DNA of 64,000 nucleotides from Lama glama (GCA_028534125.1 CM052816.1:74278001-74342000), one strand, 5' to 3'; positions 16,196 through 57,198 are shown, counted from the stretch's first letter. Made by a program: numbers and translations. Notes: generated by a model not told the origin, from the letters alone.

Positions 16196-16695
16196 NNNNN
16201 NNNNNNNNNNNNNNNNNNNNNNNNNNNNNNNNNNNNNNNNNNNNNNNNNNNNNNNNNNNNNNNNNNNNNNNNNNNNNNNNNNNNNNNNNNNNNNNNNNNN
16301 NNNNNNNNNNNNNNNNNNNNNNNNNNNNNNNNNNNNNNNNNNNNNNNNNNNNNNNNNNNNNNNNNNNNNNNNNNNNNNNNNNNNNNNNNNNNNNNNNNNN
16401 NNNNNNNNNNNNNNNNNNNNNNNNNNNNNNNNNNNNNNNNNNNNNNNNNNNNNNNNNNNNNNNNNNNNNNNNNNNNNNNNNNNNNNNNNNNNNNNNNNNN
16501 NNNNNNNNNNNNNNNNNNNNNNNNNNNNNNNNNNNNNNNNNNNNNNNNNNNNNNNNNNNNNNNNNNNNNNNNNNNNNNNNNNNNNNNNNNNNNNNNNNNN
16601 NNNNNNNNNNNNNNNNNNNNNNNNNNNNNNNNNNNNNNNNNNNNNNNNNNNNNNNNNNNNNNNNNNNNNNNNNNNNNNNNNNNNNNNNNNNNNNN
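16196..16695. other. Assembly gap (500 N)
   Basis: Run of N. Confidence 1.
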
Positions 16696-19982: not shown

Positions 19983-20510
19983 ATGGCGCAGAACTTTCCT
20001 CCCTGCGTGCGCGAGGCCTGGGATTCTGCAGCGGAGTCCCAGAAACCGGAGATGCTGCAAGTCTTGAGCTTAGCGGACCTTGCGGACTGGCAACTGCCCT
20101 TCTATCCTAAGCTGGGCCAGCTCTCTTGCTACCAGGAAGACTTGGATTGGGAATGCCTTTCCAGTCCCTGCGGGTTTCTGTGCACTTATTGCCCGAAACA
20201 TGGAGCCCGAGCGCCGAGCATCGGCAGGCGGAGCGCCGGGAGGCCCGCCAGGGGCCCGACGCCCGCGACCCGCTATGGTCCGGAGCCACAGGCGCCCCAA
20301 GAAAAGGCGGTCGCCGCTCCCGCAGCCTCGGTTGGCAGGTGGCGCCGCTTCCTGGGCCGCCTGTTGAAGCCCGAGAACGCTGCCGGCGGGGACCCTTCCA
20401 AGCGTCGCCCTGCTCCTGCCCCCGGGAGGCAGCGGATCCCAAGCAGATTTCGAGGCTGGGGGCGGCGGATCCGACTTGCAGTGGCCCGGAGGACCCGGAG
20501 CTGCGAATGA
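19983..20510 (+). CDS. ANXA2R-like paralogue 1, 175 aa, apparently intact
   Basis: MAQNFPPCVREAWDSA...WQLPFYPKLG...LSSPCGFLCTYCPKH aligns with ANXA2R at 26439; strong Kozak gcgATGG, TATA upstream, AATAAA at 20648-20653. Confidence 0.85.
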   Translation: MAQNFPPCVREAWDSAAESQKPEMLQVLSLADLADWQLPFYPKLGQLSCYQEDLDWECLSSPCGFLCTYCPKHGARAPSIGRRSAGRPARGPTPATRYGPEPQAPQEKAVAAPAASVGRWRRFLGRLLKPENAAGGDPSKRRPAPAPGRQRIPSRFRGWGRRIRLAVARRTRSCE

Positions 20511-20647
20511 GCCCCGAGATTTGAACTGAGCCCCTCACCGCCCCGGACAAGTGATGTTCCAGCCACATCTCTGCGTTTGCTCCATAGAGATGGAAGTCAT
20601 TTGTCTTTAGAATTCTTAGTGAAATTCCTTTTCGGTACTTAATACTT

Positions 20648-20653
20648 AATAAA
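20648..20653 (+). terminator. Polyadenylation signal of paralogue 1
   Basis: AATAAA followed by T/GT-rich sequence; conserved in copies at 39390 and 44309. Confidence 0.7.
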
Positions 20654-23083
20654 GGTGACGAAAAACGATGTAACAGTCCATTTTTCTTTCCCCAGAGGCC
20701 CTGGTTTGTCTTTTGGGGAAGACTAGGCGCACGGGCGGCGGTGGCCAGTACCAGTTCCCGCGCCGCATCCTCGGTCGCCGGGTTTTGCTCGGCACGGGCT
20801 AGACCCTGGGGTTTCCGATGGAAACAGGCATCCTGGGTGACGTGGGGAGGGGACTGGGGTGGAGCGTGGGCTTCCGTCTGACTCCGCGACACCCGCTGGG
20901 CCTCCCAGAACAGCAGATAGGCCGTCCGCAGCCCCAGCTCCGTGGCCCTGGCCCTTCTTGGCCTGGAGTCCTCAGGACCCTCCAGGCATCTGCACGCGGC
21001 TCTGCTGCCGCCTCCACCGCATTTCCCCCACTCCTCCCTGAACTCACCCAGAAGTTCACCCTCCCCTCAGGGACTAGACCCCAGCTAGTCTCCCTAATCC
21101 CTCTGAATCTCCGCAACACTTTAACCAGCAGCACCGGTCAGGAACTGGCTGAGCTGACCTGCTGCCAGATAGCCAGCGTGGAAGTCAAGGGTATAATGAT
21201 CCCGGACTAGTGGCCGGGAAACCAGCGCCCCCTTCCCAGACCCAAGAGGATGGGCCGAGCGCTCCAGGATCCGGCAGTGGGCATGCTCAGAGCAATTCCT
21301 CCTCCAACTGGCTGTCTTTTCCAAGGTGCCAGATTTCTCCATCCAAAAGGGACTTGAGTTAGGGCGTTCACCCCTTCCTGGGGGTGAAAGCCAGCTCTTT
21401 CTGGAGTAAAACGCCTTTCCAATGTGAATCACTGTATCAGGCTCAGCACAGGCCACGACTTAGAATCCTCCCAACTAGACGAAGAGGATATTAATCTGCT
21501 GCTTCTCCTGGGCCTGGCATCCTGAAGCAATTTACACTGAAGGTTAACATCAACATCTAGATTTCAGCACCTTGTTTCTGATGACTTATAGGTCCAGCAT
21601 TTGCCTTCCCTCTCTCCTCCACCTCTCTCTTGGCCCAGACATGCTATTACACTGTGTAGGAGAGTGAAAGTTTGGAACGTCATCTGTCTTGCTGCAAGGG
21701 GTTGGGGTCTGGAAGCAAGAAGTGGGAGCCAAGTTACTCCCCTCCCTACACTGGGTAGAAGCCCGAGTCTGACAACCTCCAGGGACTGATCTGAGGCTCA
21801 GGGGAATGCTCTATTTCTGTGCAGATGGGAACCACTCACTGTGTGGGAGAGAAATACTGAGGACTCAGAGACTGTCTCTGCACAGTAAGTAGTTTGGGAG
21901 TCCCCAAAAAGACTGCCTGGAGTTGACACTTGTGCTCCTCTCTGGCCCAAATTTAGCCCCAGGGAAGAAGAATACTGCAGATCAGGTGTCTGCGTGGAAA
22001 AGTCACAAAAACCCCAGTGTAGGTGGTGATGGGTGCCCACAGGGCAAGGATCTGGAGTTCTGCCCTCTCTGAGACTACCTGGGTGGCTACCTCAGTGCTT
22101 TCTCCTCCAACTTCGTTAGAAACACCCCCTTGAATTCAAGCCCTGTTGCTACAGTCACTGGCTTCCTTGTGTTCCAGTCCCCAGGGCATAGTTTGGGATT
22201 GTGCAGATATGACCATCATTTTTTAAAAAATCATACATTGGAAAACATGTCTGTTCTTTATAATTTCTTGCTTATAGAAGTGGGATTCTGGGTTAAGAGC
22301 ATTCATATTGAAATTTTTAATGCATATTGCCACATTGTCTTTCCAAAGATCCTTTTAAATTCATACACAAAAGTTCTGTTGGGAAGTTACTACTTTACCA
22401 ACAGTAGAACAAATGAAAAATTTTAATGTAGGCCACTATGGTAGTCAAAGTTATGTCATTTTAAAAAATGACACTTTGCATTTCATTGACCTTAATGAAC
22501 CCTGAACTGGGTCCCTGCTCCCCTGTCAGACACAAGCCCACCTCCCATCCCTTTTAATCCTGGCTCCATCCACCCAAATCAATTGCACAGGCAGAGAATA
22601 AGGAAACAGACTTTAATCATTGTGCACAATTGGAATTAACATGAAAAGCACGAATATTCTGAGTACATCTGCAAGAAACATCCTTAAGATAGTATTGATT
22701 CCCTGAAAAGAGATTTCTTATTGAAAAACCTGTCAGTAATTCAGGAATGAAAGGACAATAAAGAATATTCTGCACTACAGAGACCCTGAGGCTCATCCCC
22801 GAGCAAGGCTGGGGCCAGGGGAGAAGTCCAGACAGGCAGAATGAGGGCCTCCACTGGGGTGACTCCGTGACTCCAGTCCAGGGCATGGGTTGAAGGGTTG
22901 CCGTGTGGCAGGGCATAAGGCTGCCATCCTTCCTTACTTTGTGGAGTTCCTGGGTTTCAAGCCTCATTTTTCAGCAGTCTCAGGGGGTGGGGATGGGAGT
23001 GGGTGGGGCTGTCTTGGGATCCTGGGAGGCAATCTGGCTGCTTGTCTGTCCACCTCCGCTGCTGCTGGCATCTCCTGACTGGT

Positions 23084-23437
23084 TCAGGCCCTGTTGAGCT
23101 GCGTGGTCTGTAGCTCTGGCCTCTTCTTGGTGGGACAGTTGTTCCATCCCGGATGAGCCATTGGCTCCTGGGCTTGTGGGTCTCGACAGCGTTTTGGGCT
23201 GCTCTCAACTTGGGGACCGTCTGCATGCTCGGTGCAAGCACGAAGCAGCCTCTCACATGCACCATAGTGCCCGTCCCCGTAGGACTGGGGCATTGGCAGG
23301 AGGGGCGGCTCAGCGCGGGGAAGTTATCCAGAACCCAGGCCCAGGCCTGGTTCTGGGTTCAGGCCCCATGGCATGTGGGGCTCTGGATGTGCCCACCTCC
23401 AAGACAGCTCTTGCAGGGTGGATGCATGGGATTCCAT
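23084..23437 (-). pseudogene. Disrupted copy of the 117-aa divergent ANXA2R-family gene
   Basis: Same 354-nt span as 43026-43379; +1 insertion ~23350 gives TAA at 23324-23326 after 37 aa, then a -1 deletion ~23288; TATA lost; ATTAAA at 22612-22617. Confidence 0.8.
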
Positions 23438-24409
23438 CTCTTCAGCCTTCTTACTGGACTGGGACTAGTTGCCTGTCTAAGCAAAGGGGCAAGTGATTCA
23501 GTCATTTACTGAGTGTGTCTGTCTTGTATAGGACATCAGGAAACCTAAGTTCCAGATAGGTGGGGATAGGCACTCATTTACCTTTCAAATTGCCTTGGAG
23601 CCTCATGGGATAGAGGAGAAAACTGCGTCTTTCTGGGAGGCACTATGGAAATTAAGAGCGGTTTCATTGATGGAGTTAGAGGAGGGGGATGGGAGGAGAG
23701 GAAGTTCCCTGGGGAAAGTTCAGTCCTGGTCGGTTCCACTCCTGCAGGAAAAAACTCTCTACTCAGCAGGCAAAGCTGCCAAATTACACTTCACATGTAG
23801 GTCTAATAATTTAACAGCTCAGAGAGGATTGCCTGATTTTAGAGATGAGGTTCCATGATGGCAGATCCTCGCCAGAATACAAAGCTAGTTTCAGCAGGAG
23901 CTGGATTAAGATACCAGATTTTCATGTAGGCATATCAGGAAGGGAAACAAGTAAAGGAGTGATTAGGTAAGGGTAGGAAAAGGAGAGTGCTTACTTAGAG
24001 TTGTAATATTTCTATTTTTGTCTACAGTAGCTTAGTGGAATCAAAGAGAGATCTCAAGTTTGCCCTGATTTTCATACCTACACGACAAATTGAATTGAGT
24101 GAATGCCATGTTTTTTTTTATCTTGTTGGTAGGACCCCTACCCTATTTTATATGACTATGAATATTCTATCATTAGTGATTCTCATTTCTCTGCTTCCTT
24201 TCTTCCATATAATTTTTCTTGTTAATAACTACTGTACTTTTAATGAGTATTTTGGTAATTTTCAGTGTGGTACTATATAGTATTGTTTTGCATGCCTATA
24301 TATTCAACTTATGTAAAAGCAAATGTGTTCTCTTTAGGCAGTTTAGATAGAAATGAGCACTGGGCAGGGGGAGAGGAAGGGGAAAGGAACAACCCAGAAG
24401 ATAAAAGTG

Positions 24410-24902
24410 TGTCTGCATTCAGGAAAAAGGACTCCAGAAATTTTTACTTTCTCTAAATGAGGGCCAGCAAAAGAAGCCAGTTAAAATCAACACGCTGCAG
24501 CTGTGCGTAAGAGGACCAGACGCAACTTGAACCAATGAACCTGCCCAAAAGGGGATGGGCGTGCCAGAGCGTAGGAATCTGAGTTGTCAATCAACCAGAG
24601 CACAAAGAACCTGAGCTGTCAATCAGCTCCATCACTCAAAGAACCTGAGCCCTTAATCAATCACCAAAAAAAATGCCCCCAAGCCAAGATATAAAAACAG
24701 GAAAAACAAAGGAGCCACGCCATTTTTCCTCTCTTGGATTGGCCCGCTCCCAATTCTCAGGAGTGTACTATCTTTTACTACCTTTTTACTTCACTAATAA
24801 AACATCTTGCTTATGTCACGCTTTCTGTCTCTCATTAAAAATTCTTTTTTTTTCAGGTGACTAAGAACCGAGGTAATTGTTATTTCCCTTTTCCCGGTAA
24901 CA
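24410..24902 (+). mobile_element. Solo ERV LTR
   Basis: TG...CA ends, 5-bp TSD AAGTG (24405-24409 and 24903-24907), TATAAAA at 24690, AATAAA at 24796, short U3 repeats. Confidence 0.88.
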
Positions 24903-25861
24903 AAGTGATTCTTTAGGGTAGCAAATCTAGATATATTAGGGCCTGCAATTTTTAAATCGTAGCAAATTGCGGTTTCCGAACAGTGAGTCCCAGCAGCTCC
25001 TGGTTTGCCACGCCAGTGGAAGCGCCAAGGCCAAAGTATGCCCTTGGCAGAACCCTACCCCTCCCATGTGCCATCGCATTTTGGGCCGAGGACAGCTAGT
25101 GTCCGCCTGATGCCCTCTGATGGTGGTGGGACGGTGAGATTAGCCCTGAGCCACTGTGCCCCTTGGCTATTCCCTTAGTGTCAAGAGATGGGACTTCTTC
25201 TGTCACATTTACCCAAGTCTAGGAGGAAACTCAAAGTCATGACGTTACACGGTGGATTTAAAGTGAAAACAAGGATTTTTTTTTTTTTAGCCATAGAGAC
25301 GATAACTACCGCAGCGGTGTCCAGACTGAAGGGTTTGATTAAAGGGATTTTCATTATTTTAATAAAGTTAAAAATTTCAACCCATAAAATAACATAAACT
25401 AAGTTGAATATCAAGTACGTTAAATAGCAAGACAAGTAAAATTTTTAAATAAATAAAATGGAAAGGTTGTAAAATGTAACGATACTTTTAAATTAAAAAT
25501 GAAAGAATGAAGAGAAATCGAAAATAAATTATCCTCACACTGAGACGGTGTTTTGCTCTAAGGCAGCACCGGTCATTCCTCCACGCAGGGTGGTTTTCGG
25601 GGTCTCAGGCTGCTCCTTTCTGAAAGCCGGCGGTTTCTCTTTGTCTGCACAGCAGATCGCTCTCAAACGGGTAATTTGTCTTGGGCCACAGCACCACTGT
25701 TGACTGCTGCCAGTGCCGCTGGTGTCTGCGGTTTCTCGTCCGCGAGGCGGCCAGCGGCGGCACCGCTCCTTTTGCCCAGAGCGGTGGCTTCTGGTCTCCG
25801 CCGGGGCGCCGACAGCTCCCTGCGTGTTGCAGGGCTCCTTCTCTGTCGGGTTTGCTTATTG

Positions 25862-26285
25862 TTGTTCCCTTTCGGTTGTTTTCATGCTATGTTTTTTCAT
25901 CAGAATGACTTATTCTGGTTCGCTGTGCTGTCTAGGATTTGTCTGAATTCCATTGCGTCCGGTTTCCTTTCGGCACCTCCGTTTCCTTTCGGTTGTTTTC
26001 CTCTGGCTACGGTTTTTCATCGGGACGATCTATTACCGTCCGTTGGCCGTGCCCTTGTAGGGCTTGTCACTATTCTATTTGGTCCGGTTTGCTTTCGGTT
26101 TCTCTGTTTCTTTTTTTATTTAAGTATAGTGAGTTTATGTCGTATTTTATTCCGTCTGATTTGCTTTTGGCTTTTCCATTTGTTTTCGGCTTGTGTAGCT
26201 CTGGTTACGATTTTTTTTCATCAGAACGATTTATTTCAGCTCCCCGTGCTCAGTACGATTTAGTCGTATTCCATTTAGTCTACTG
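25862..26285. repeat. Three degenerate T-rich units (~110-120 bp) upstream of ANXA2R
   Basis: Recurring core 'tttttcatcagaatgacttatt' / 'tttttcatcgggacgatctatt' / 'tttttcatcagaacgatttatt'. Confidence 0.7.
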
Positions 26286-26438
26286 ATTTTTCTCATATTT
26301 CCTACCAGGATTCTTTTGATGTCTGACTTGCCTCCGCCCACGGTGCATAAATACCAAGGCTCATGGCCCTTCTGAAGGCTCTGCCTCCTCCATCAGAGCA
26401 AAGGCTCGTGTCCTGCTGCTGGTCCGAGGTCTATTGCG

Positions 26439-26933
26439 ATGGAGCAGCATTTTCTCCAGCCCGAGAAGGAGGCTTGGAATTGCGCAGAGGTGGAGCCAGA
26501 GCTGCAGCTTCCTGGCGGGAGCCCGGCAGATTCTGGGCCGTGGCCGCTTCCTTTCTACCCGGTACTGGGAGAGTCCTCAGGCCATCGCGGCGATTTCAAT
26601 TACGAACTGCTTTCCAGTCCTTGTCGGTGCCTGCCCTTTGACTTCTTGCCAAACAGACCCAGTCCCAGAGCCTGGAGCACTTTGGAAGCAAGCGCAGCCC
26701 AGCTCACAGCCACAGGAGAGAGGGACCCGGCAGAGGAACCCGACCAACCCCCAACGGGACCTGGTGACAGAGAGCAGGACAGCGGGCCACCTTCGGAGCT
26801 TCACCTTCCTCCCGTCGCCGCTTGGTGGAGCCAGAACCCGCTGGTCTCCGGCTGCTTAGAGTGGATTGGTCGCTCCCTGCATGCCTTGACCTGTGGCTGC
26901 TGCAGGTTCATTTTTGGCGCTAAGGAGCCCTGA
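26439..26933 (+). CDS. ANXA2R: Annexin-2 receptor (ANXA2R/C5orf39) orthologue, 164 aa
   Basis: MEQHFL...AW...GPWPLPFYPVLGE...LLSSPC...AEEPD...CLEWI...CC..I.GAKEP matches human ANXA2R as I recall it at both ends; gcgATGG Kozak; GC box and CATAAATA at 26346; AATAAA at 27006-27011. Confidence 0.9.
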   Translation: MEQHFLQPEKEAWNCAEVEPELQLPGGSPADSGPWPLPFYPVLGESSGHRGDFNYELLSSPCRCLPFDFLPNRPSPRAWSTLEASAAQLTATGERDPAEEPDQPPTGPGDREQDSGPPSELHLPPVAAWWSQNPLVSGCLEWIGRSLHALTCGCCRFIFGAKEP

Positions 26934-27254
26934 GATGGCAGCAGGAGTCTTTTGGGCACTTGCCCCAGGAAAGGATTCTAGGTTACAAAACCTGCCTCCT
27001 TAGGAAATAAAAATGCATTGCGACACAATATCAGAGTTCGTTGTCCATGTTTAGTTCTTGTTCCCTTTGAGTTTCTTGTTGCAGTTCTGGTCACTTAGCA
27101 CTTGGCAGCTTCCTTGCTGGACAGCCAGCCCAGGGAACAAAAATATATTCATATTTTCGCCCAGCCGGTTGTTTGTCTATGGCAGTAGCTTTGGTTCTGC
27201 TGAGTGGGATGTTTCTGGCTGGCTAGCAGCAGCGGCAGTCACTTCCTGTGGGGG

Positions 27255-28273
27255 TGGTACCGAGTCCAAATTCGTTCTGCTCCACACTGGACAGGCCAAT
27301 AAGTCGGGAGACGAGGTGTTGGGGCAAGGAATAACAGCTTTATTTGGAAAGCCAGCAGATTGAGAAGATGAGGGACTAATATTCTAGAGAACCATCTTAC
27401 CCAAGTCAGAATTCAGTTTCCTTTTATACCAAAAAGGGGAGAGTGTGGTTGATTGCAAACTTCTTGGTATTGGAATCCTTTGTTCTTGGAGCTGTCCACG
27501 TAGGTCAGGTCATGGTGTTCCTGTAAACCTCCAACAAGACAAATGTTATTCTCTGCCCCGAAACCTTTCATCTCTATATGAATGGAAAAGTGTTTTACCA
27601 TTAAAGGTCAGTGTTGCCGACGAAATGAATCACAAAAATGTGGCTGACGAAATGAATCCCTGAGCGGTTGTGGTGCAAAAAAGTCTCCCGAGGCTCGGGT
27701 TTCTTTATTCTTATACCCCTCACACAAAGGAGCAACCCGAAGCCGTACCAAGCATCGCGAGACAGTATTTTTTGAATTGACGCAAGCGCACTACATCTAA
27801 GACGTTCCTCCTAGTCATTTCCTTATCCTAAGTATCTTTATTGCTCTCAGACCCTCCTGTTCCCAGGCCTGTTCCTTTTGAGGAACAGATAAACATCCTT
27901 GTCTGCAAACAATGTTTCTCCTGGGAAGAGGAAGGGTCTCTTGGCAGGAATTTCTGTTTGCAGATAAGTCCGGCCACTTCTGTGAGATGTCCCGCGTGCA
28001 GGCACACCCACAGTTTCCCTACTAAATCTCCTTCATCCTTGGCAGGAATTTCTGTTTGCAGATAAGTCCGGCCACTTCTGTGAGATGTCCCGCGTGCAGG
28101 CACATCCACAGTTTCCCTACTAAATCTCCTTCAGGTCAGAGCCTTGAGAATGTATATTTCAGGCTATAGGAAACATTCTTTTAGGAAAGGTGCAGAACCA
28201 ACATGATTAAGCATAGGAAACAGCACAGGGTTAGAGCTAAAACAGCTCTAACGTTGTAGTTCTTCCCTAGTAC
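27255..28273 (-). mobile_element. Solo ERV LTR (same family as 5389-5814), interrupted by a younger LTR
   Basis: 'ggagacgaggtgttggggcaagga' is the reverse complement of sequence at ~5740-5762. Confidence 0.85.
27612..28133 (-). mobile_element. Young nested solo LTR, possibly class II (betaretrovirus-like)
   Basis: TG...CA ends, perfect 6-bp TSD GGTCAG (27606-27611 and 28134-28139), near-perfect ~99-bp internal tandem duplication, CpGs retained. Confidence 0.85.
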
Positions 28274-28279
28274 AGGCGC

Positions 28280-29000
28280 TAGCTCCTAAGCGCCAGGGTC
28301 GCCGTTTTCTGGGTCTCTGATTGGTGGAACGGGAAGGCGGGTTTTTCATCCATCAGGAAGTGTTTCCCAAGAGAGCGCCAAATCTTGCCTGAAAGGGCCA
28401 CACAGGGTTGGCGCTTTTTTATTGGCAACACAGGTACTCGAGCTGCCTCAGTTAAGCTTCCCTTGGCACAGCGGTAGTTGCACCGAAATCGCCCTAGGGT
28501 TTCTCGTCCTCCAGTGCGACGCGAGTGCGGGGCGTGGCTGGGCTCTCAGCAGTAAGGCCCCTCAATTCTCTCCAGAGGTAACTGGGTCCTAGCACCGCTG
28601 GATCGCTCCACGCCCCGCCGGTCTCACAGTCGCAGTCCCTGGGCTAGCACGGAGCCCCTGTTGAGGTCTGCACCTGCCCTGGTTGTGAGAAGTCCGCGGC
28701 TCTTCCCTCACAGAACACGTTTGCATCGACTTGTTTTCTCGGTGGCCGCACGCAGCGTACATTCCTCCAAACCGGCTTTTTCTCGGTCGGTGCACTGTTA
28801 ATTGCTCCTTGCCGGCGTTGCTTGGAGGCAGCACTACGCCAGGTGCTCCGGGTCAGCGTTTTGTGAGTGGCGGCTTGGATAAAGCACTGGTCAACGAGAT
28901 TTCTCAAGCAAAGCAAGTCTGGATTCGGGACTAGTAGCGCTTCAGCCCCGCCTGCGATTTCTCAGCCTTAGGAATCTGGCGTTTTACCGTGAGCTCGAGA
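28280..29000. promoter_or_regulatory. CpG-rich promoter-like segment
   Basis: High CpG density, two ATTGG (CCAAT) boxes, CAGGAAGT ETS site, GGGGCGTGG GC-box. Confidence 0.5.
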
Positions 29001-29479
29001 TTTCTTAGTCTGAAGAAGTCCCGCTGGAGAGATTCCTTAGGGTAACAAGTGGTGATTTATTCGGGCCTGTGATTCTTTGTCCTAGCAAATTTCGGTTTTG
29101 GAACAGCAAATCTCAGCAGCTCCTGAGTTGCCACGCCTGTCGAAGGGCCAAAGCCAAAGCGTGCTCTTGTCAGGGCGGGACCACTCCCCTGTGCCATCGC
29201 TTTCTGGGCTGTAGCACAGTTAGTGTCCGCCTGATGCCCTCTGACGGTGGCGGGACGGTGAGGGTACCCCCGAGCCACTCTACCCCTTTTCCATCCCCTT
29301 AGTGTCATGAGTTCCGGCTTTTTCTGTCACAACACACTTGCTCTACTTCTAGTAGAAAGCTCAAAGGCGTGATGTTTCATGGTGGATTTAAAATGAAAAA
29401 TAAGGACTTTTTAAAAAAAACCTTAGGTCTAGTTTGGCAATTACAATGGGCTTGTCCAGACGCAGGGTTTGGTTTAAAC

Positions 29480-35400: not shown

Positions 35401-36085
35401 TAAGGCATCTTAACTCTGTCAGCCCATTTTTCAACAGCTGTTGCAGAACACAAGGGATCACCCCTTTGAACAGAGTAGGGTGACTTACCAAGAAGCTTCC
35501 ACAAAGGTCCCTCAGCAAGATCAGTGAGCTCCACATGAAGCGGGGAGAACTGGGATCTCAGATTGGCCAGAAATCAGGGAGCCCAATGGGGCCCTGAGTG
35601 CACACTGGTCTCCAGGTTCTTCAGGTTTTCTTTGTTTTTCCCCATCCTACTTCTGATGACAAACATTTTTAAAAGAAAATTCAGAGAACTTTTCTGAATA
35701 GAAATATTTTATTGAGGGAGAAACAAATTGTTCTCAAAGAAGGAGATTTCAAACGGAAAACTAGTATGAAGCTCAGAGGCTTGACTTTTCAGGACAGCTT
35801 GTAAAGTGAACAGGAGGAAGTTGTTTAACCTTTACAATAATTGGTTATTACAGTAGGCATTTCCAGAGGGCAGGGGATTGGCTAAAGGGATTATCTTATT
35901 CCATTTTAGGAAGATGACTTAAGGTTTTATTTATTTTTAATGATTTTCAAAGGCATTTACAAGAAATAGCTTGAGTTGAATTTCCCCTATGTTTTGCAAC
36001 GAACTGGATTTAGTTTTGCTTACATGGCTCACACGGTTTTGTTTGCTAGGGGAGTTTTCAGGCCTGGTCTATATTTTATTTCATT
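29480..36085 (-). mobile_element. Outer degenerate ERV (LTR ~35665-36085, internal region split by a second provirus)
   Basis: LTR-like end 'tattttatttca'; minus-strand 'tgtcatcagaagtaggat' resembles a tRNA-Leu PBS; AT-rich MER4-group-like internal sequence. Confidence 0.55.
30629..35298 (-). mobile_element. Deleted class I ERV provirus with two LTRs
   Basis: Homologous LTRs ~30629-31168 and ~34815-35298; tRNA-Ser-like PBS TGGCACAGTTAGCAGGAT; polypurine tract at 31169-31180; gag start MGNHASKS...KWPGWGSF (34087); RNase H remnants FTHGSY, AELIAL, NIYTD (~31790-32000). Confidence 0.85.
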
Positions 36086-36564
36086 TCACCTCACTTCATT
36101 CATTTCAGCTCTGATCCTTCTGGGCGCTAGCCCCGCTGAGTTCTCACTGTCCGCAGTTCTTAGGTGGCAGCACCCTCGAAAGGACCAAAACGGATATTTG
36201 CTTTTGACCACAACAGGACTCTGCGCCAGGCGTGCCTTGCTGGTCCGGGCGCCGTTAAGGTGCTCTGTCTGTGTCAGCACTTTCTGTCGCGGTCACCGCC
36301 CCTCCAAGTGCACCAGACCAGCATTTTCTTAGAAGTTTTCACTAGAGTCACAGTGGTGCTTTCCCGGGTCGCAGCCTCGCCGCCTTCCCCAAACCCCCGC
36401 AGTGGGTGGCTGGCAGCAACGCACTCGCTTAGAGACGGTTCGATTTAGCGAATTCCGCCTTAGCGATGCTTCCCATTTCACTCGCCTACGAATCGGGGTA
36501 TGCCTGGGAATGCGATTTCCAGCGTGAAATCTGTAAAATATTCTTTTTGCCTTTCCTTCTTTTT

Positions 36565-37575
36565 TTTTATTGGGGGTAAAATTGGCATGTAAGTTTCAGG
36601 TGTACAACACTATGTTTCAACATCTGTTTTCATTACAGTGATCATCCCTGAAAGTCTAGTTACCATCTGTTATCACACACTTGACCCCTTTCATTCATTT
36701 CAACCGCCCTCCAAGCCCTTTCCCCTCTGATAACCACCAGTGTGTTCTCTGTGTCTGAGTTTGTTTTTGTTTGTTCAAGATTTTTTGTTTGTTTGTTTGA
36801 TATTCTACATGGGAATAAAAGCATATGTTTTTTTGTCCCTTACCTTCTGACTTATTTCTCAGCATAATACCTTCAAGTTCCAAACATATTACAAAGGGCA
36901 AGATTTCATTATTTTTATGGGTAAATACCAGGTCTTTTTTTTTTTAATCAACTCATCCATGAGCGGACACTTACGTTATTTTCACATCTTGATTGTTGTC
37001 AATAACGCTGCTATGAACACCGGGGTGCATCTAACTTTTCAAGTTAGTGCACTTATATTCTTCAGATAAACATCCCGAAGTGGAATAACTGAATTGTATG
37101 ATAGTTCTATCTTAACTTCTTGAGGAATCTTCATACTATTTTCCAAAGTGGCTGCTCCAATTTACATTCCCACCAACAGTGTATGAAGGTACCTGTTTTT
37201 TGGTCACATCCTCACCAAAACCTATATATATATTTTTGTCTTTTTAAGGATAACCATTCTAACAGGTATGCAGTGATGTTCATTGTGGTTTTGATTTGCA
37301 TTTCCCTAATAGTTAGAGATGTTGAACATCTTTCATGTGTCTATTGAGGTCCTCTGCCCATTTTTTAAATCCTTTGGCGTTTTTGTTATTTTCAAGTTGT
37401 ACAAGTTCTTCACATATTTTGAATATTAACCCTTGATGGATATGTGATTTGCAAATATTTTCTCTCATTCAGTACTTTGCTTTCTCATTTTGATGGTAGT
37501 TTCTTTCATAGTGTAGAAGCTTTTTAGTCTGATGTAGTCCCATTAATTTATTTTTGCTTTTGTTTCCCCTGCTAT
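36565..37575 (-). mobile_element. LINE-1 3' end
   Basis: Poly-T head then antisense L1 3'UTR and ORF2 C-terminus. Confidence 0.88.
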
Positions 37576-39508
37576 TTCTAGACTTGAGAAAATAGCTGCC
37601 TGCTAGATACCTTGCTGTTTCACAGTCTCAATACTGAATTACATAAATTAGCAATTGTGTAAGAAATTTTGCCATCATAGACATTTATGAAAATTCCTTT
37701 TGCTTGCTTGATAGATTCTACAAAAATTCCAACATCCTTTTCTTTTTATATATACCCTGGGTTCCTGCTTTGGCTGTTGGGGAAGGACAAGGAGCTGAGG
37801 CAGGGGTGGCTGGTGTCATTCAGGTTCAAGACAGAAAAAAAAAAAGGAAAGAAAGAAAAAGAAAAGAAAACTGAAAAATGGAGCACACACCCCCATTACT
37901 AGAAATAGTTATAGGTAATGGCAGCAGCAATCTATGCCAGAAAAGCTTTTTCTCTAACAATGAAATGGATAGTGAAATACTGCAAAGACCCCAGCTTTCT
38001 ACCAGCAAAGAGCACTTCTATGGTATTCAGCATTGCTAGTCAGTTTCACAGCCAAAAACAACCTAAGACCATAATTTTACATATTGCTAGTACACTGTTT
38101 AGTACCAAACTTATTCTACAATATTTAATAAAAGACTGGTGTCTAGATGTATATTATAATTTAAAACGTAGGGAATTATAAAGTGACAATAAGAGCTTGC
38201 CTGATAGAGTGTAACACTGTCTGCTTGGTCTATAACAGTCCCAGTAATCAATCATTCCTACTACTGCTACTTTGGATAGAATACACTGTAGCATATTTTG
38301 GTGTCAAATAAGTTTTGCAAAGAAATTTACACACAAAAGGGTAGAGGGCATAAAACTCTGAATTTTAGAATTGCTAAAGGAACTGTAAAACTGGGTTACA
38401 TACTGATTGAGCCACAATATCCAGTCTGCAGAGGTGGCATATGGAAGGAATCCTGGCAGGGAAAAGGGTGGGGATGACAGAAACTAGAGAGGTGAGGCGG
38501 AAGGATTGTGGGAAATAATTCCGGAGGGAGGAAGCCCCTGCTTTCAGGGATATGTGAGCTTAATCCCAGTGCAGGATTTTGCCCCCAGAGAAAACACAGC
38601 AGCTGAGAGAGTCTCAGAATAATTGTAGTTAACATTATTCACCCTTTACACTTTGCCTGACATTCTGTCAGCGCCGCTTTTCAACCCCGAATTTGGTGGT
38701 TGCGATAGTTCAACACTATCCGGAAAAGAGAAGGCAAGGGCCTTGGAGAGTCGCCAGTTTGAAAGTGGGATATGAAGCGAGCCTGATCGCTCCAGAATCT
38801 GGCCACAGAAACCCCACACTACAAAGGACAATTGCTGGCTTTCCGGTGTCCAGGTACCAAGGCCTTCCCACTCTGCCCCAGCTCATTGCCTCCAGGTCAG
38901 CTCGGAGGTGCCAGCTGGAAATCAGGTTTCTGTAGAGTCAGAGGAAGGAAGGACGCGCCCAGGAAAGTGCCTAAGGGAAACAGAAGCCCTGCACTGCTGG
39001 AGGCCAATGCTTCTAGATGTCTTTGGGCAGCAACAGTCTCTGGAAGACTAGGAGCAACTGGTTGGTGCCGCAGGTGGACTGGGAGGGGAAAGGTCCAGGG
39101 CAAGGGAGCAGGAGTATTTCTCAGGCTAAGCGGAGTTCTCAGGGATGCTGGCTGCTCTTTGCTGGATCTCTTGGAGCGCAGCAAGTGTAACTCTGACAAC
39201 GGCTATGCTGGACCCCTGACAGCCGGGTATGCCCAGGAGACCCCACCGACTTTTCCCCGTGCAGCAAATCAGGAGACAGTGGGTCCCGCGCTAGGACGGC
39301 ACCAGACACTCCCTCCGCTGCTCCTCCTTGCTTCCCCCAAAGCTAAAGTGGAAACACATGAGAGAGGGAAACGTTGGAATTTCGTGTAATTTATTAAGTA
39401 AGCGAAAGAAAAACTCACAAATGTCTATGAAGACAAATTCTTATATGATTGCCAAACTGAGAGGTGTTATTGTAACATCTGTCGCAGGGGATCGTCTAAT
39501 GAAGGATC

Positions 39509-40050
39509 TCAGCGGAGATGAGGGCTCTTGCGCCGAAAGGCTGCAGGGGAGGCAGCCCAAGTTCTTGGCGACTGCGCATTGGTCCGCTGCCACTTGTCTT
39601 GAGACTTCGAGTGGTGTCTCCCCAGGCCAGGAGGAGGGCGATGCTCCAGATGGCTCTTTGAGGTCAGAGGTCTCGGGATCCAGATTTTGGGTCCTCGATG
39701 TTGGAAGACCAGCCCAGAGAAGCTTTGGGGGCGGGCGGCGGCCGCCTCTTCCTCGGGCGCCTGTGGCTCCTGGCGTGTCGTGGGCTTTGGGTCCGGGGTG
39801 GGCAGCGAGGTTCTCTGCGCTCTGGGTCCGTGTTTGGGGCAGTAAGCGCGCAGAAACCCGCAGGGGGTAGAAAGTAGTTCCCTATTGAAGTTCTGGTTGT
39901 CCCAAGAGAGGTGGCCCAGCTTAGGATAGAAAGGGAGCTGCCATAACTCAGGGTCCACTAAGCTCAAGATTTGCAGCATCTCTGGTTTTCCTGGGGCTTC
40001 TCTGCAGAATCCCAGGCTTCCTGCACGCATTGAGGAAAGTTCTGCTCCAT
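39509..40050 (-). pseudogene. ANXA2R-like paralogue 3, frameshifted (possibly rescued by an alternative ATG)
   Basis: ATG 40050 reads MEQNFPQCVQEAWDSAEKPQ, then a +2 frameshift ~39988 gives TGA at 39964; the other frame continues KPEMLQILSL...WQLPFYPKLG...STPCGFLRAYCPKH; TATA degraded; AATAAA at 39390-39395. Confidence 0.8.
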
Positions 40051-43025
40051 CCCTTCCGCCACCGAGAGGGGGAAAAGTTTTCAGGGATTCCCTTCCTTTT
40101 GAATTATTATTCTGGGCTCTTATGCTTCCAACTAGAGAGTATTAGGGTGGATGGTGCGGTTTTCCTCAGCTTGGTAATTGCTTCAAAAGGCGGGACCTGT
40201 GGAGATTAAGGGAAAATCCAATCATCTTGGATGGGGCTGTTCCAAGCTGAATTGATTTTGTTGATTCAGAGAATTAAAGTTTTTGTGCTGTTGTTGTTTG
40301 TTTTTAAAAGAATGACAGGTAGAGGGGCTCTGTCAAGACAAGTTATTTGGAAGGTTAGTCTTTTATGAAAAGTATCCTAAATGTCTGACCCTTTTAGGGG
40401 AACTGTATATCCACTGATTCTCAGGGCCCTTCTGTTTGGAAAGTACTGTCAGATTTTACCTAGATGATCAGAATGAGACGTTGGCCATCTTTGCATGAAA
40501 TCACACTACTGTCAGTGAGACAAGTCAGACTCACACCCTGGGCTTCTGTTGTGGATTTCTAAGTCAAAACATTTTCAGAATTTTAGTCAACATGTAGGAG
40601 GGGAGGGATCAAGGTCTCGAGAGAGCCAGACACAGACCGTTTGGGTACAAGTTCTATCATTTCTGTAAGACTCAGCTAGTCATCTGGCCTTTCTTGCCTT
40701 CACACTTTTACCTGGACGACAGCTAAAATTTAATGTTTTACAAGGTAGCTTTCATGATTAAATTGGATAACAAAGGCCAAATAATTAGATATCCCAGGCA
40801 GAAAAGAAGTTGTTCAATTACAAATATTATTTTCATTATCATTCTTAGTGAGATGAGCATGGACATAAACATAACATCAATGAATAACAAACCCTAAATG
40901 CTGTCTTTTTGTGTGTGTTTAATCTTAGTGGACCGCTTTTGCCTTCTTGTGTCAAATCGATAGTGAAATTGCATTCCTTTACATCCTTCCTCAGATGTTC
41001 AAACACTCTGTTGGCAAACATGTCAGTGCATCCAAGCCTAGATTTCCTTCATCAGTCATTTATCTATCTAAACAAAGTCAGTTTAATTCAAAGAATTTTA
41101 AATGAGCACGTTTTGACAGCCTGCCGCGAGCAGGGTGCTGTGATGGGTGCTACATACACAGAGCTGTAGAACTGGCTCCTGCTTTGGAAGGTCTCACTTC
41201 TAAGGGGAGAGCAGAGTCCCAGTTAAGAGACCATGAAGACACAGCCAAATATTGTTTCCTATGGTGGTCGGCTTGATGCCAGGAATGAAAACTCTAAAGT
41301 TTAAGATGTTTGAGAGGACTCCACAAAAGCCAGTCTTTTTGCACAAGGTGAGGAGAAAAGACAATGGTAGGGATAAAAGTGAGAAAAAAGGAAACAGAAA
41401 TAAAGAAGACAATCAACATCAAAAAATGAGAAATAAGTAAATAAAGAAAGTGGATTCAAGTATGGACCACACAAGAGGCAGAGGGTTGGAAACTCTGGTC
41501 AAGACAGCCAATAGAGGGAGGTTGAAGGGGTTCGTTGGAGCAACTTGAATCTTTGCAGCTGACTTGGGGGTATGAAGTAATTCAAGCCAGAAAGCTCTGC
41601 TGGGCCAGGTTTAAGGGAAAGACAACAACTCTGTTCCCTTTGAAGTCTCAGCAGTGAGCTTATTGGCTCTGGTGCTGCAGAACCTTCTCAGAGAGTTGTT
41701 TGAACACCACTAATTTCCCCCAGAGGGTCAGGGGCAGCTAGCCTGTGTTACAGCTGCACCAGAAGGAAGCCACTACAGTGAGAACCAGCAATGTGGTCAG
41801 ACTGCAGATGATACCAGTCACCAACAAAGTGGAGATCACCTGATTTCAGACAAGGTCTACCCATTATTACATGCAGTTGTGATGTCTTAATATCTCTTTT
41901 AATCTGCAAAAGTTCCCCATCTCTTTTATTTTTCCCTTTCATTTTTTTTCACAGAAAATTGTATAATAAGCACAATGTCCTACCTATTTTTTTTTAAAAT
42001 ACTTTTCTGAGTATCAAGAATAGAAACATTCCACTGACCCTGTGAGCCAGCAGGGAGCAAACTCATTCTTCACTTTTGGGCATGTGAAACAGCAAGGTGT
42101 CTACCAGGTAGCTACTTTCTCAGGACAAGAATGAGGGGATTTCAAGATGGGAAGGAAGAAAGAGTATTTCAAGGATTCTACAAATGATCATTGAAATTGA
42201 TGTGCAATAATGTAGATGGATTTGAATAAAATCAGTCCATTTCTATACCAACAATAAGTTTTCATCAGTTTTTAGGGAAAAGGGTGGCATAGGAGAATAT
42301 ATATTTATGAGAAGAGGTCACAAGAATACATGTAGGCAGGGATGGGCTTCCCCTGCTGAGAGACAGCAGTGAACTGTTAGGGTCATCGTGTCCTGGCCAC
42401 TCTAGTAGTCAAAGTTATATGTCATTGCTTCACTTTGCATTTGTTTAATCTTATTGAGCCCTGACCTGGGTCCTAGCTCCCCTTTGAGGCACGGGCCCAC
42501 CTCCCCACCCCACCCACTTCGAATCCTGGCTCCACCCACTCAATCAATTGCACAGGCAGAGGATAAGGAAACAGGATTTAATCATTGTTCACAACTGGAA
42601 TACACAAGAAGCATGACAATTCCGAGTAAATCTACTAGAAAGGTTCTTAAGATAGTATAGATTCCACGAAGAGATATTTCTAATTGAAAAACCTGTCAAT
42701 AATCCAGGAAGAAAAGGACAAGTAAGGAATGTTCTGCACCAGAAACTTCAAGGCTCAACCCCTAGCAAGGCTGGGGCCAGGGGTTAAGTCCAGCCAGGTA
42801 GAATGAGGGCCTCCATTGGGGTGACTCAGTGACTCCAGTCCAGGGCATGGGTTGAAGGGTCGCCTTGGGGTAAGCACAAGGCTGTGATCCTTTCCTTGTC
42901 GAGTTCCAGCCTCAGTTTTCAGAAACTTCGGGGTTGGGGTGGGAGGTGGCCTGTCTTGGACTCCTGGGAGGTGATCTGGCCACAAGTCTGTCCACCTCCG
43001 GTGCTGCTGGCATTTCCTGGCTGTT

Positions 43026-43379
43026 TCAAGCCCTGTTGAGCTGCGCGGCCTGTAGCTTTGGCTTCTTCTTGGTGGGACTGTCGCTCCATCCTGGATGAGC
43101 CACTGGCTCCTGGACTTCTGGGTCTCGACAGCGTTTCTGGCTGCTCTCAACTTGGGGACCGTCTGCATGCTCGGTGCAAGCATGAAGCGGCCTCTCACAT
43201 GCACTATAGTGCCCGTCGCCGTAGAACTGGGGGCATTGGCAGGAGGGGCGGCTCAGCGCAGGGAAGTTATCCAGAGCCCAGGCCCAGGCCTGTTCTGGGT
43301 TCAGGCCCCGTGGCATTTGGGGCTCTGGATGTGCCCACCTCCAAGACAGCTCTTCCAAGGTGGATGCGTGAGGTTCCAT
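43026..43379 (-). CDS. Divergent ANXA2R-family protein, 117 aa, apparently intact
   Basis: gcgATGG Kozak; TATAAAA at 43462-43468; ATTAAA at 42577-42582; W13, WALDNFPAL and SACERPLHACTEH have the same spacing as the other family members. Confidence 0.72.
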   Translation of the reverse strand: MEPHASTLEELSWRWAHPEPQMPRGLNPEQAWAWALDNFPALSRPSCQCPQFYGDGHYSACERPLHACTEHADGPQVESSQKRCRDPEVQEPVAHPGWSDSPTKKKPKLQAAQLNRA

Positions 43380-43527
43380 CGCTTCAGTCTTCTCACCAGG
43401 CCAGGACGAGTTGCCTGTCCAAGCAAAGGGAGGAATGATTCAGTTCGGTACTTACTGCAACTTTTATAGTGTCTGTCTTGAACAGGGCGTTGGAAACCCA
43501 AATCCAAATAGGTGGGGATAGACACTC

Positions 43528-43542
43528 ATTTGCATTGCAAAT
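43528..43542 (-). promoter_or_regulatory. Octamer / PORE-like palindrome
   Basis: ATTTGCATTGCAAAT contains a perfect octamer ATGCAAAT on the minus strand, ~60 bp upstream of the TATA box. Confidence 0.6.
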
Positions 43543-45017
43543 TGCCTCGGAGCCTCATGGGGTTGAGCAGGAAAATGCATCTTTCTGGGAGGTGCTAGGA
43601 GAAATTACGAAAGGTTCCGGTGATTAAGTTGATGGAGGGGGTTGGGAAGAGAGCACGATCCCTTGGGAGAGAGGTAGATTCCTGGTCGTTTCAATTTATT
43701 GGAAAAGGCCTCGCTACTTGGGAGGCACCCCTAGGCAAAGTCACCCAGTTATGGAGTAGGAATTTCAAGGAGCACCACCATTCCAAACCCAGAAGCGCTC
43801 GAAGCATCCTGTCACGGCAGGGGAGGCTGGTTTTCGGGCCAGTCCAGGGTCATTATCCCCTTAGCTTCTACGCCAGCTATCTGGCAGCAGGTCAGTTCAG
43901 CCAGTCCCTGGCAGGCGTTGGACAAGAAGGTTGCGGAGAGTCGGAGGAGTAAGGGGCACTTGTTGGGATTAATTATCGCCTGAGGGTAAACTGGAGGAGT
44001 TCAGGGAGGGGTGGGAGGAATGCGGCGGATGCAGCCGCAGAGCCGCGTGCAGATGCTCAGAAGGCGTGCCTGCTGTTCTGGGAGGCCCAGCGCGGGTCGG
44101 AAAGTCAGATGTAAAGGCCACGCTCCACCCCATTCCCTTCCCCAACCCATCCTCCTCAGCCGGTGTGCACGGGAGACCCCGCGCCCAGCAAAGCCCAGAG
44201 ACCAAAGAGCCGGCACCAGCCACCGCCGCCCGGGAGCCTCGTCTTCCCAACAGGCAAACCAGGGACTCTCGGGAAGAATCACGGACTGTGACACCGTTTG
44301 TCGTCAACTTTATTGAGAAGCGAAAGCGCAGTTACTATTTTTGGAGTTCACATTGTGTTAAATGTATGCCTAAGGGAGCGGGCCATTAAAGACTTTGATA
44401 TGGTGGGTACTGTAATTAAATTACATTTTCTTAATGAGGAAAATGAAGCAGAAGGGATCAGCTCACTTCTGGAAGGCACTATTGAAACTCCATGGGTTTT
44501 GATGATTGCATCAAGCAGAGGTAGGGTTGTGGGGCGAGAAGGGTCTAGTTACTGACAATTTCCATAGGATATAGAAAGCCTCTCTGTGTTTCAGACAAGC
44601 CTGGACAAATTACACTCAGTAATTCTCGTATCAGAGCGGCATTGCCTGATTGTAGAGAGTAGATTCCACGAGATTAGATCATAACCCAAGATCACACAGA
44701 TAGTTCCTGCTGGACTGAGAACATAGGTCCTCAAGCATATGCCAGGTAGGGGAATTAGCAAAGGAATAATTAGGCTGGATTGGGAATAGCAAAGACTTGT
44801 GCCTACCTAGAATCGTAATTTTTCTACATTTGTTGACGCTAGATTACCTGAATCAAAGGAACATTCAAAATTGCTATGTCTTTCATACCTAAAGACAACT
44901 GGGTTGAGTTAATGTCACATTTTCTATAGTGGTTTTTGCTGACCCCTATCCTCTTTTAGGTAATTATGTGTATTCTATTCTTAGTTATTCCCCTTATTTG
45001 CTTTCCCTCTTCCACTG

Positions 45018-45517
45018 NNNNNNNNNNNNNNNNNNNNNNNNNNNNNNNNNNNNNNNNNNNNNNNNNNNNNNNNNNNNNNNNNNNNNNNNNNNNNNNNNNN
45101 NNNNNNNNNNNNNNNNNNNNNNNNNNNNNNNNNNNNNNNNNNNNNNNNNNNNNNNNNNNNNNNNNNNNNNNNNNNNNNNNNNNNNNNNNNNNNNNNNNNN
45201 NNNNNNNNNNNNNNNNNNNNNNNNNNNNNNNNNNNNNNNNNNNNNNNNNNNNNNNNNNNNNNNNNNNNNNNNNNNNNNNNNNNNNNNNNNNNNNNNNNNN
45301 NNNNNNNNNNNNNNNNNNNNNNNNNNNNNNNNNNNNNNNNNNNNNNNNNNNNNNNNNNNNNNNNNNNNNNNNNNNNNNNNNNNNNNNNNNNNNNNNNNNN
45401 NNNNNNNNNNNNNNNNNNNNNNNNNNNNNNNNNNNNNNNNNNNNNNNNNNNNNNNNNNNNNNNNNNNNNNNNNNNNNNNNNNNNNNNNNNNNNNNNNNNN
45501 NNNNNNNNNNNNNNNNN
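45018..45517. other. Assembly gap (500 N)
   Basis: Run of N. Confidence 1.
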
Positions 45518-45686
45518 ATTCCTGAAGTCCTTGCTGCTGAAGATCTCAGTCCCCAGCTGTGTGTGGCCAGAGCTGGGTGGATCTGGCCAAGAGAGGCTGC
45601 CAGGGCAGGCATCTGTCCATGTGCTCTGCAGCGCTCTGCTCTCCTGGGGCGGACTCTGACTCCTGCTGGCTCTTGGGTGTTGACTC

Positions 45687-45962
45687 CTAGGCAGACAGGT
45701 TTAGATCTGGTTCTAAAGTGGTCTGGGCTCTATACAAGTGTCTGTGCCCAGGGCAGGCCCAGCTCAATAGCCCACATGGCGTGGAAAGCAGTTCCCAGTT
45801 GAAATGTGGATTGCCCCACCAGGGCTCCCCCAGTCTGGGGTAGAAAAGGAGTGGCCATGGCCCCAAATCTTCTGAACTCAGAGACAAAGACACCTGGGGT
45901 TCCAGTGCTATCTCCACAGAATTCCAAGCCTGCTTCACACAGAGGCAAAAAAGCTGGGGCAT
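45687..45962 (-). pseudogene. ANXA2R-like paralogue 4, 91 aa, probably nonsense-truncated
   Basis: MPQLFCLCVKQAWNS...GPWPLLFYPRLGE...LLSTPCGLLSWACPGH; TATAAAT at 46044-46050; ANXA2R-like frame continues past the TAG; 3' end falls in the gap. Confidence 0.75.
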
Positions 45963-57119: not shown

Positions 57120-57144
57120 TACAGGCGCCTCCCGCGGGGCTCCC

Positions 57145-57198
<54 letters not shown>

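Follow-up and report, generated by a model that had tools for sequence, protein, structure and literature searches.

A mixed cluster of ANXA2R-related genes and gene relics was found in a 64,000-nucleotide stretch of llama DNA (Lama glama, GCA_028534125.1 CM052816.1:74278001-74342000), referred to below as the window. The cluster is probably the product of local duplication and inversion at the camelid ANXA2R (RESIST) locus, followed by decay, which left one intact orthologue in the company of paralogues and of copies of a sister family. Its contents would be c3 as the intact orthologue, four to five more copies of the ANXA2R type, and two sister copies, with one further sister copy unplaced. 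Among the additional ANXA2R-type copies, c1 would be open but limited to the N-terminal region, c4 broken here and open in camel, and c6, x7 and perhaps x8 broken; among the sister copies, c5 would be open, and c2 and the unplaced copy broken. The part common to the copies would be a disordered N-terminus with a tryptophan, followed by the motif W-x-L-x2-[YF]-P-x-L and then by a cysteine-containing block.

Six copies are labelled according to their start coordinates, namely c1 at 19983(+), c2 at 23437(-), c3 at 26439(+), c4 at 40050(-), c5 at 43379(-) and c6 at 45962(-). The sequence observation made on these six in the initial annotation is confirmed. An ATG stands at all six start coordinates and, as had been stated, codon 13 specifies Trp in each of them, the opening 15 residues being MAQNFPPCVREAWDS in c1, MESHASTLQELSWRW in c2, MEQHFLQPEKEAWNC in c3, MEQNFPQCVQEAWDS in c4, MEPHASTLEELSWRW in c5 and MPQLFCLCVKQAWNS in c6. 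The motif W-x-L-x2-[YF]-P-x-L, which had been described as common to them, was matched six times in the six-frame translation of the 64 kb, always at c1 to c6 and never outside them. In 300 block shuffles that kept the local composition the mean was 0.083 matches per window, with at least one match in 24 of the 300 and at least two matches in a single one, a control that is somewhat circular for the c2/c5 pair since the motif was written down after the copies had been seen. The Cys that had been claimed to follow without gaps once frameshifts are corrected lies 27 residues past the motif Trp, in frame in five of the six copies and, in c2, only after correction of a -1 indel.

The interpretation of the cluster that accompanied these observations is partly supported. 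The list of six copies omits a seventh (x7, 55925(+)) and possibly an eighth (x8, about 47080(+)), both described below. Protein identity between the window copies is 32-56%, and an assembly artefact or haplotig duplication can be ruled out, given DNA identities of only 60-81% between them. None of six window open reading frames (ORFs) has an exact match in the protein collection, which has no bearing on the annotation of this genome; among named proteins, those of Camelus ferus, hippopotamus and pig come closest. The DNA of the window is mammalian and is interrupted by two N gaps of 500 bases each (16196-16695 and 45018-45517), and the source assembly (2.35 Gb, 1.07 million contigs, N gaps) is fragmentary.

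The ANXA2R-type copies

Homology among c1, c3, c4 and c6 was observed in pairwise tblastn comparisons, with expectation values (E) of 1e-6 to 4e-26 in the best direction per pair. All four exceed the curated cut-off of 27 for the Pfam family PF15721 (ANXA2R), their whole-protein scores being 54.1 bits for c1, 96.7 for c3, 36.4 for c4 and 67.6 for c6. A search of the whole 2.35-Gb assembly with PF15721, in which 22 candidates were scored, returned five matches, and all five fell inside the window.

The orthologue c3 (26439..26933, +) is an intact ORF of 164 amino acids in which N-terminal motifs and C-terminal helix are both present, and it is 93% identical to a database protein of 190 amino acids (P0002). 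In this assembly the frame of an upstream ATG (MALLKALPPPSEQRLVSCCWSE.., in 26363-26641, +) differs from that of c3; in P0002 the two frames agree, and the protein is thereby extended by 26 residues at its N-terminus. Two tandem copies of a 98-base unit, 98% identical to each other, were noted at 27940-28133, some 1 kb downstream from c3.

The paralogue c1 (19983..20510, +) consists of the N-terminal region only, as an intact ORF of 175 amino acids situated in a stretch rich in guanine and cytosine (GC, 58%). Its residues 3-109 are covered by PF15721, and its closest match in the protein database is only 47% identical. The paralogue c4 (39509..40050, -) is frameshifted in this assembly, codons 1-20 being read from 40050 and the rest from the ORF 40030-39509; relative to c1, an A run beyond approximately codon 20 carries a +2 change. 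The orthologue of c4 in Camelus ferus (P0001, annotated as 'annexin-2 receptor') is open over 179 amino acids and, by eye, approximately 90% identical. In c6 (45573..45962, -) a TAG ends the ORF after 91 amino acids, and the N gap at 45018-45517 has removed the 3' end. When c6 is read through this one TAG, the PF15721 score rises to 80.1 bits and homology extends to model position 129, with a second stop found downstream. The seventh copy, x7 (55925..56126, +), is a relic of the same type that starts with MTQPCFSCRNQAWNS; codon 13 specifies Trp, codon 26 is a stop, and the reading frame is broken by a frameshift. In DNA it aligns collinearly with c6 (E 2.6e-11) and with c3 (E 3.8e-6). The possible eighth, x8 (47079..47162, +), is a very degenerate relic placed head-to-head with c6, lacking an ATG and having another residue in place of the Trp; this weakly supported candidate was recovered by nhmmer with a five-copy DNA profile at E 0.0019 (translation ..FFLSCLKQGQNSAVPELQL..). 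Disabling stops or indels were recorded within this group in c4, c6 and x7.

Two statements made previously about the standing of ANXA2R need revision. The gene had been presented as a poorly conserved single one of unclear structure, but it is known as RESIST, and duplications are on record for mouse (PMC12310523) and for horseshoe bats (PMC13500052). The description of the family as largely unannotated is not supported for the ANXA2R type, as 'annexin-2 receptor-like' is the name given to six of the 21 matches of c3 (hippopotamus, black rhinoceros (two), Rhinolophus sinicus, Artibeus and Talpa), to which the 'annexin-2 receptor' label on the camel orthologue of c4 can be added.

According to the report by Witt et al. 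(Nature 2025, PMC12310523), which is the source of the following statements on RESIST, the protein binds CCR4-NOT directly and stabilises IFNB1 mRNA. Its C-terminal helix is predicted to lie at the TTP site on the M-HEAT domain of CNOT1, and contact with the Trp pockets of CNOT9 is also predicted. A C-terminally truncated RESIST loses most of its effect on Ifnb1 and still co-precipitates with CCR4-NOT (PMC12310523).

The C-terminal halves of the llama copies had been described as divergent, which agrees with the outcome for a C-terminal hidden Markov model (HMM) built from other mammals with the camel c4 orthologue excluded. With this HMM c3 was the sole scoring copy of the window (93.8 bits), the corresponding part of c6 falling in the N gap. 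The score of c1 was not significant (E 9.7), the aligned part being a Pro-rich stretch only, and c4 gave no match in any frame. Two candidates chosen for their likeness by eye were rejected: RFRGWGRRIRLAV of c1, considered as the ANXA2R helix, was not significant with the C-terminal HMM, and an alternative-frame C-terminus of c4 had zero matches. Because c3 alone keeps the C-terminal helix, it would be the only window copy able to act as RESIST.

A core domain of about 70 residues had also been proposed for the copies, and this is not borne out by the model of c3 obtained with AlphaFold2 and the family alignment. The model has a mean predicted local distance difference test (pLDDT) score of 57 and no secondary structure other than a helix at 134-151, residues 1-130 having a pLDDT of 55-63 and no secondary structure at all. 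The stretch that bears the motifs is thus disordered and without a fold in the prediction, so that the shared N-terminal region is better described as disordered with motifs than as a fold of 70 residues.

In the phylogenetic tree c3 groups with its 93%-identical relative (support 100/99) and then with the ANXA2R of hippopotamus and pig (99/99), and c4 pairs with Camelus ferus P0001 (99/97). A long-branched clade outside all other mammals is formed by c1, c4 with its camel orthologue, and c6 (97/93); judged from the sequences, it may be either an old paralogue lineage or the result of fast evolution combined with long-branch attraction. From its position and its domain content, c3 is the only ANXA2R orthologue among the window copies.

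Between c1 and c4 the synonymous divergence (dS) is about 0.35 and the ratio of nonsynonymous to synonymous divergence (dN/dS) is 0.65 over 92 codons; the core of the two copies is 81% identical and the upstream flank 72%. Synonymous sites are saturated in the c1-c3 and c3-c6 comparisons, where the proportion of nonsynonymous differences (pN) is about 0.37. These rates bear on the foremost competing explanation, which holds that only c3 matters and that all the rest, c1 and c5 included, are non-functional relics in a pseudogene graveyard. If all of the extra copies are dead, the finding would be an ordinary graveyard of genes at an immune locus. We give this explanation a substantial minority chance. 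It accounts for the stops or frameshifts in c2, c4, c6, x7 and x8, for the absence from c1 and c4 of the C-terminal module that is needed for RESIST activity (PMC12310523), for the c1-c4 dN/dS, and for the even distribution over codon positions of the differences between c5 and its DNA relative L006. It is less easily reconciled with the 175-residue ORF that c1 has kept at this dS from c4, the core being better conserved than the flank, or with the open frame of 179 amino acids in the camel orthologue of c4. The sister family also speaks against it by keeping its invariant block and further blocks in one frame in afrotherian, bat, carnivore and artiodactyl records.

The c2/c5 sister family

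The copies c2 and c5 belong to a distinct, older sister family, apart from c1, c3, c4 and c6. The copy c5 (43026..43379, -) is an intact ORF of 117 amino acids with the block EQAWAWALDNFPALSRPSC. In c2 (23087..23437, -), which is broken, a +1 change (CC to CCC) and a -1 change (C5 to C4) flank the conserved block and a stop lies between them. The two proteins are 68% identical, and their DNA is 91-94% identical over the ORF region against 78-83% in the flanks. A third copy is present in the same assembly on an unplaced 2.4-kb contig (C114653, L008) at about 583-945; it reads MEPHAWTLEDLSWRWACPEPHMSQGLNREQAWAW.., is frameshifted after AWAW and is 71-80% identical to c5 and c2.

Database homologues of c5 number 22, with E from 1.7e-41 to 1.6e-6, and none of the 22 has a Pfam domain. 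An exhaustive phmmer search with c5 returned, at E<=0.001, representatives of 29 clusters, those at the end of the list being long multi-stretch proteins and probably spurious. Pfam gave no match for c2 or for c5 (the latter at E<=1), and the PF15721 cut-off was reached by none of six sister-family proteins, the sole match (18 bits) being on the ANXA2R-like N-terminus fused to a seal model. The ESM Atlas look-up with c5 returned no usable match. In scans for further sister-family DNA, one locus was obtained from 375 pattern matches in metagenomes and none from 89 in genome contigs.

The members of the family are recorded as 'hypothetical protein' in Rhinolophus ferrumequinum (mRhiFer1_010055 and _010060) and in Mirounga leonina (two per contig), as 'uncharacterized protein LOC...' in Elephas maximus and in six felid species (seven LOC records from Panthera, Neofelis and Prionailurus), as 'unnamed protein product' in Rangifer, and as one chimeric 'myoferlin-like' model in Apodemus. 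Judging from these records, the sister family appears to be an unnamed gene family spread across placental mammals under uninformative annotations.

In the family alignment the block E-Q-A-W-A-W-A-x-D-N-F...S-C is invariant, the invariant columns being E29-A35, D37-F39, S46 and C47. The longer forms have additional blocks conserved in the same frame, ERGQKRCRDP, NQPGDAS..GGGQT and RKLLKT, over about 150 residues. By its E (to 1.7e-41) and its EQAWAWA-DNF..SC block c5 is a member of this uncharacterized LOC family, which is multi-copy in the greater horseshoe bat and in the elephant seal. It is a short form of 117 amino acids, with an ending like that of several unnamed relatives and the reindeer protein, whereas felid and other forms reach 200-240 amino acids and are in another frame after about residue 95. 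The AlphaFold2 model of a sister-family protein of 238 amino acids has a mean pLDDT of 55 and a confident hairpin made of helices 28-37 and 39-52 (pLDDT about 95), which coincides exactly with the invariant block.

The comparison of c5 with L006 gave a dN/dS of 0.51 (Nei-Gojobori; Fisher p 0.017), and the differences are even across the three codon positions (22/26/25). In the block (codons 18-48) only 5 differences were counted in 93 bases, distributed 0/2/3 over the codon positions with 31 bases each, and synonymous differences occupy 2 of 22 sites against a proportion of synonymous differences (pS) of 0.38 elsewhere (binomial p 0.003). The depletion of synonymous changes in the block could be accounted for by a second alternative, in which the block is conserved as DNA or RNA, being a regulatory element or a non-coding transcript exapted from an old ANXA2R-like copy, and the ORFs are incidental. 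We regard this alternative as unlikely; the block itself may have a role at the DNA level. The alternative would also explain why the differences between c5 and L006 outside the block are uniform over codon positions and why the c2 block is 91-94% identical to that of c5 though out of frame there; moreover, the database consists of called ORFs only, so that open frames are pre-selected. On the other hand, the differences within the block increase from codon position 1 to 3, and by eye the substitutions across the family include some that are like for like (L/M, S/C; D/E in the P0050 block). The conservation of ERGQKRCRDP, NQPGDAS and RKLLKT in the same frame, the confident helical hairpin and the existence of RefSeq models in felids and elephant are likewise more readily understood for a protein-coding family.

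Relationship of the two families and build-up of the cluster

Comparisons of sequence profiles indicate that the sister family is very probably related to ANXA2R. When the two families were aligned with hhalign, a probability of 89.6% and an E of 1.9e-6 were obtained over 89 columns; with the long sister-family forms, 153 columns were aligned at a probability of 88.2% and an E of 2.9e-6. In both cases the alignment runs collinearly from the initial Met onwards, and the motifs of the two families are superposed. An HMM of ANXA2R made without the window copies recognised sister-family proteins in a set of 80, the highest score being 28.1 bits (E 9.7e-9); bat sequences came out best, with 25-28 bits along more than 100 residues in collinear order. 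Within the window, an HMM made without the window copies ranked c5 first behind the true copies, at E 0.059. With DNA profiles the next-best matches of each family were the loci of the other, collinear and at E 0.008-0.08, and direct tblastn of the c2/c5 type against c3 gave only E 0.5-0.8.

The lack of a significant profile-profile match among the copies had been named in the initial annotation as a refutation, and such a match was found for the c2/c5 pair (E 1.9e-6). The notion of one family with six members holds as far as the homology of the copies is concerned, on the evidence of tblastn, PF15721 and the profile-profile comparisons; it fails in that c2 and c5 form a separate sister family. 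In the profile alignment, the Trp13 column of ANXA2R is occupied not by Trp13 of c5 but, owing to a 2-residue gap, by its Leu11, and Trp13 varies within the sister family. The Trp13 shared by c2 and c5 with the other copies is therefore partly coincidence.

That c2 and c5 share no ancestry with ANXA2R, the motif and the Trp at position 13 having arisen by chance beside a true four-copy cluster, is a highly improbable explanation, for although it is in line with the weak tblastn result for c5 against c3, the E of 0.059 for c5 with the HMM made without window copies, the zero Pfam matches, the differing predicted structures of c3 and the sister protein and the misaligned Trp13, it conflicts with two collinear profile-profile comparisons at E of about 2e-6 and probabilities of 88-90%, with the HMM scores of the bat sister proteins, with the reciprocal and collinear DNA-profile matches, and with the interleaving of the two kinds of copy in the window and their pairing in a seal model.

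This seal model (P0047, Mirounga leonina) has an ANXA2R-like N-terminus, MDQPFCHCVKQAWDSAE, fused directly upstream of a sister-family ORF. The N-terminus matches positions 2-19 of PF15721 at E 0.004, and the succession in P0047, ANXA2R-like and then sister-family, is also that of c6 and c5 as read along the minus strand. It would appear from this model that genes of the two kinds are neighbours with a common orientation in a carnivore as well. The long C-termini of the sister family (..CGLLHWNCALH..QEP) had been considered by eye as an ANXA2R C-terminus and were rejected, being not significant by HMM.

The arrangement of the matches in DNA gives some indication of how the cluster was built. 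Together with about 490 bases upstream, c1 matches c4 in inverted orientation at 73%. The segment downstream of c1 (20645..21326, +) recurs, inverted, just upstream of c5 at 43730-44317, with 66% identity over 693 columns in self-blastn (E 1.5e-55), and the comparison of units agrees. Between the c2 unit (22431-24207) and the c5 unit the match is direct, at 68-81%. From these three sets of matches, the repeating unit seems to have consisted of two genes, the first of the ANXA2R type and the second of the sister family, and to have undergone two or more rounds of copying with partial inversion.

Paralogues of different ages, intact and disabled copies lying next to one another, and the confinement of all PF15721 matches to the window were all found, as expected under birth-and-death evolution. 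The suggestion that these genes form a birth-and-death family gains support from the intact, shortened and broken copies standing side by side, and in particular from the fact that several copies are broken.

Some observations weigh against duplication followed by decay of related genes at an ANXA2R locus. AlphaFold2 predicts a helical hairpin for the sister block as opposed to coil for the stretch of ANXA2R aligned with it, and the sister family and ANXA2R may not work alike. The even spread of c5-L006 differences across codon positions fits a coding constraint on the sister family that is weak or nil in this lineage outside the block. The position of the c1/c4/c6 clade outside the other mammals may be an effect of long-branch attraction. 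Finally, some of the breaks may be sequencing errors, as the assembly is fragmentary and the indels of c2 and c4 lie in homopolymer runs.

A link between ANXA2R and the unnamed neighbour family was not found in the literature searched, on which the study of the horseshoe-bat expansion may bear. This link, not having been found in print, is the new part of the finding, and the camelid cluster is a new instance of the already recorded multiplication of ANXA2R.

Known systems and possible roles of the copies

The interest of the locus derives from the recent demonstration that RESIST/ANXA2R sets the stability of interferon-beta mRNA by blocking CCR4-NOT, and from reports that its copy number matters to the antiviral defence of bats. 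Human (Q3ZCQ2) and mouse RESIST resemble c3 in that c3 is their orthologue by PF15721, falls in the artiodactyl clade and has the C-terminal helix. The mouse has two tandem paralogues, Resist1 and Resist2 (Gm21188 and Gm36079), with identical proteins (PMC12310523). Tandem duplication at the locus is therefore common to mouse and llama, but in contrast to the identical mouse proteins the llama copies are 32-56% identical, mostly broken, and have the helix only in c3. In horseshoe bats an expansion of ANXA2R with active copies and a dose-dependent antiviral effect has been reported (Tian et al., Nat Ecol Evol 2025, as summarised in the review PMC13500052). The llama cluster shares with it a lineage-specific multiplication at an immune-related locus; unlike the bat copies, which are reported in that summary as active, several llama copies, known here from their sequences, are disabled.

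A further comparison can be made with proteins that bind CCR4-NOT through short motifs, one of which is Nanos with its NOT1-interacting motif. Others, as cited in the RESIST report, are the CNOT1-interacting motif of TTP, the CAF40-binding motif of Roquin and the Trp motifs for the CNOT9 pockets (PMC12310523). Such binders are disordered and dock by short aromatic or amphipathic motifs, and the llama N-terminal region is likewise predicted to be disordered and is rich in Trp, Tyr and Phe. Any resemblance of W-x-L-x2-[YF]-P-x-L or of AWAWALDNF to these motifs is a lead only, drawn from the sequences.

If the published work on RESIST is carried over to the llama copies, the aromatic motifs of the N-terminus would be a second, helix-independent part of a multivalent contact with CCR4-NOT, and the C-terminal helix would confer the stabilisation of interferon mRNA. 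The copy c1, and c4 in camel, would then be relics or, if expressed, binders of CCR4-NOT without the activating helix, which could compete with c3. What the data show is the homology of the copies, their structure and breaks, the loss of the C-terminal module and the spread of the sister family among mammals; whatever is said of binding, of expression or of a function for copies besides c3 is inferred. The camelid locus may in this respect be regarded as a natural dissection of the protein, indicating which part survives duplication and which is lost, and the unnamed neighbour family with its invariant Trp-rich block is a candidate second player at the locus.

A more far-reaching proposal is that the sister family is an ancient, unrecognised coding gene that has stood beside ANXA2R since before the placental radiation and is a second RESIST-like regulator, its EQAWAWALDNF hairpin docking on CCR4-NOT or on another hub of mRNA decay. 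The two genes would have been co-duplicated under viral pressure in bats, seals and camelids, and c1 and camel c4 would be modulators or decoys of RESIST. Taken as a whole, we consider this proposal improbable.

Two other features of the window were recorded. The region 57000-58300 is GC-rich, with a (GGCGCG)n array at 57145-57213 as well as long open frames without Pfam matches, and could represent a CpG island or the 5' end of an adjacent gene. Fragments of LINE-1 ORF1 are present at 5509-6042 (+) and 10864-11769 (+), where the Pfam families Transposase_22, Tnp_22_dsRBD and Tnp_22_trimer score above their cut-offs.

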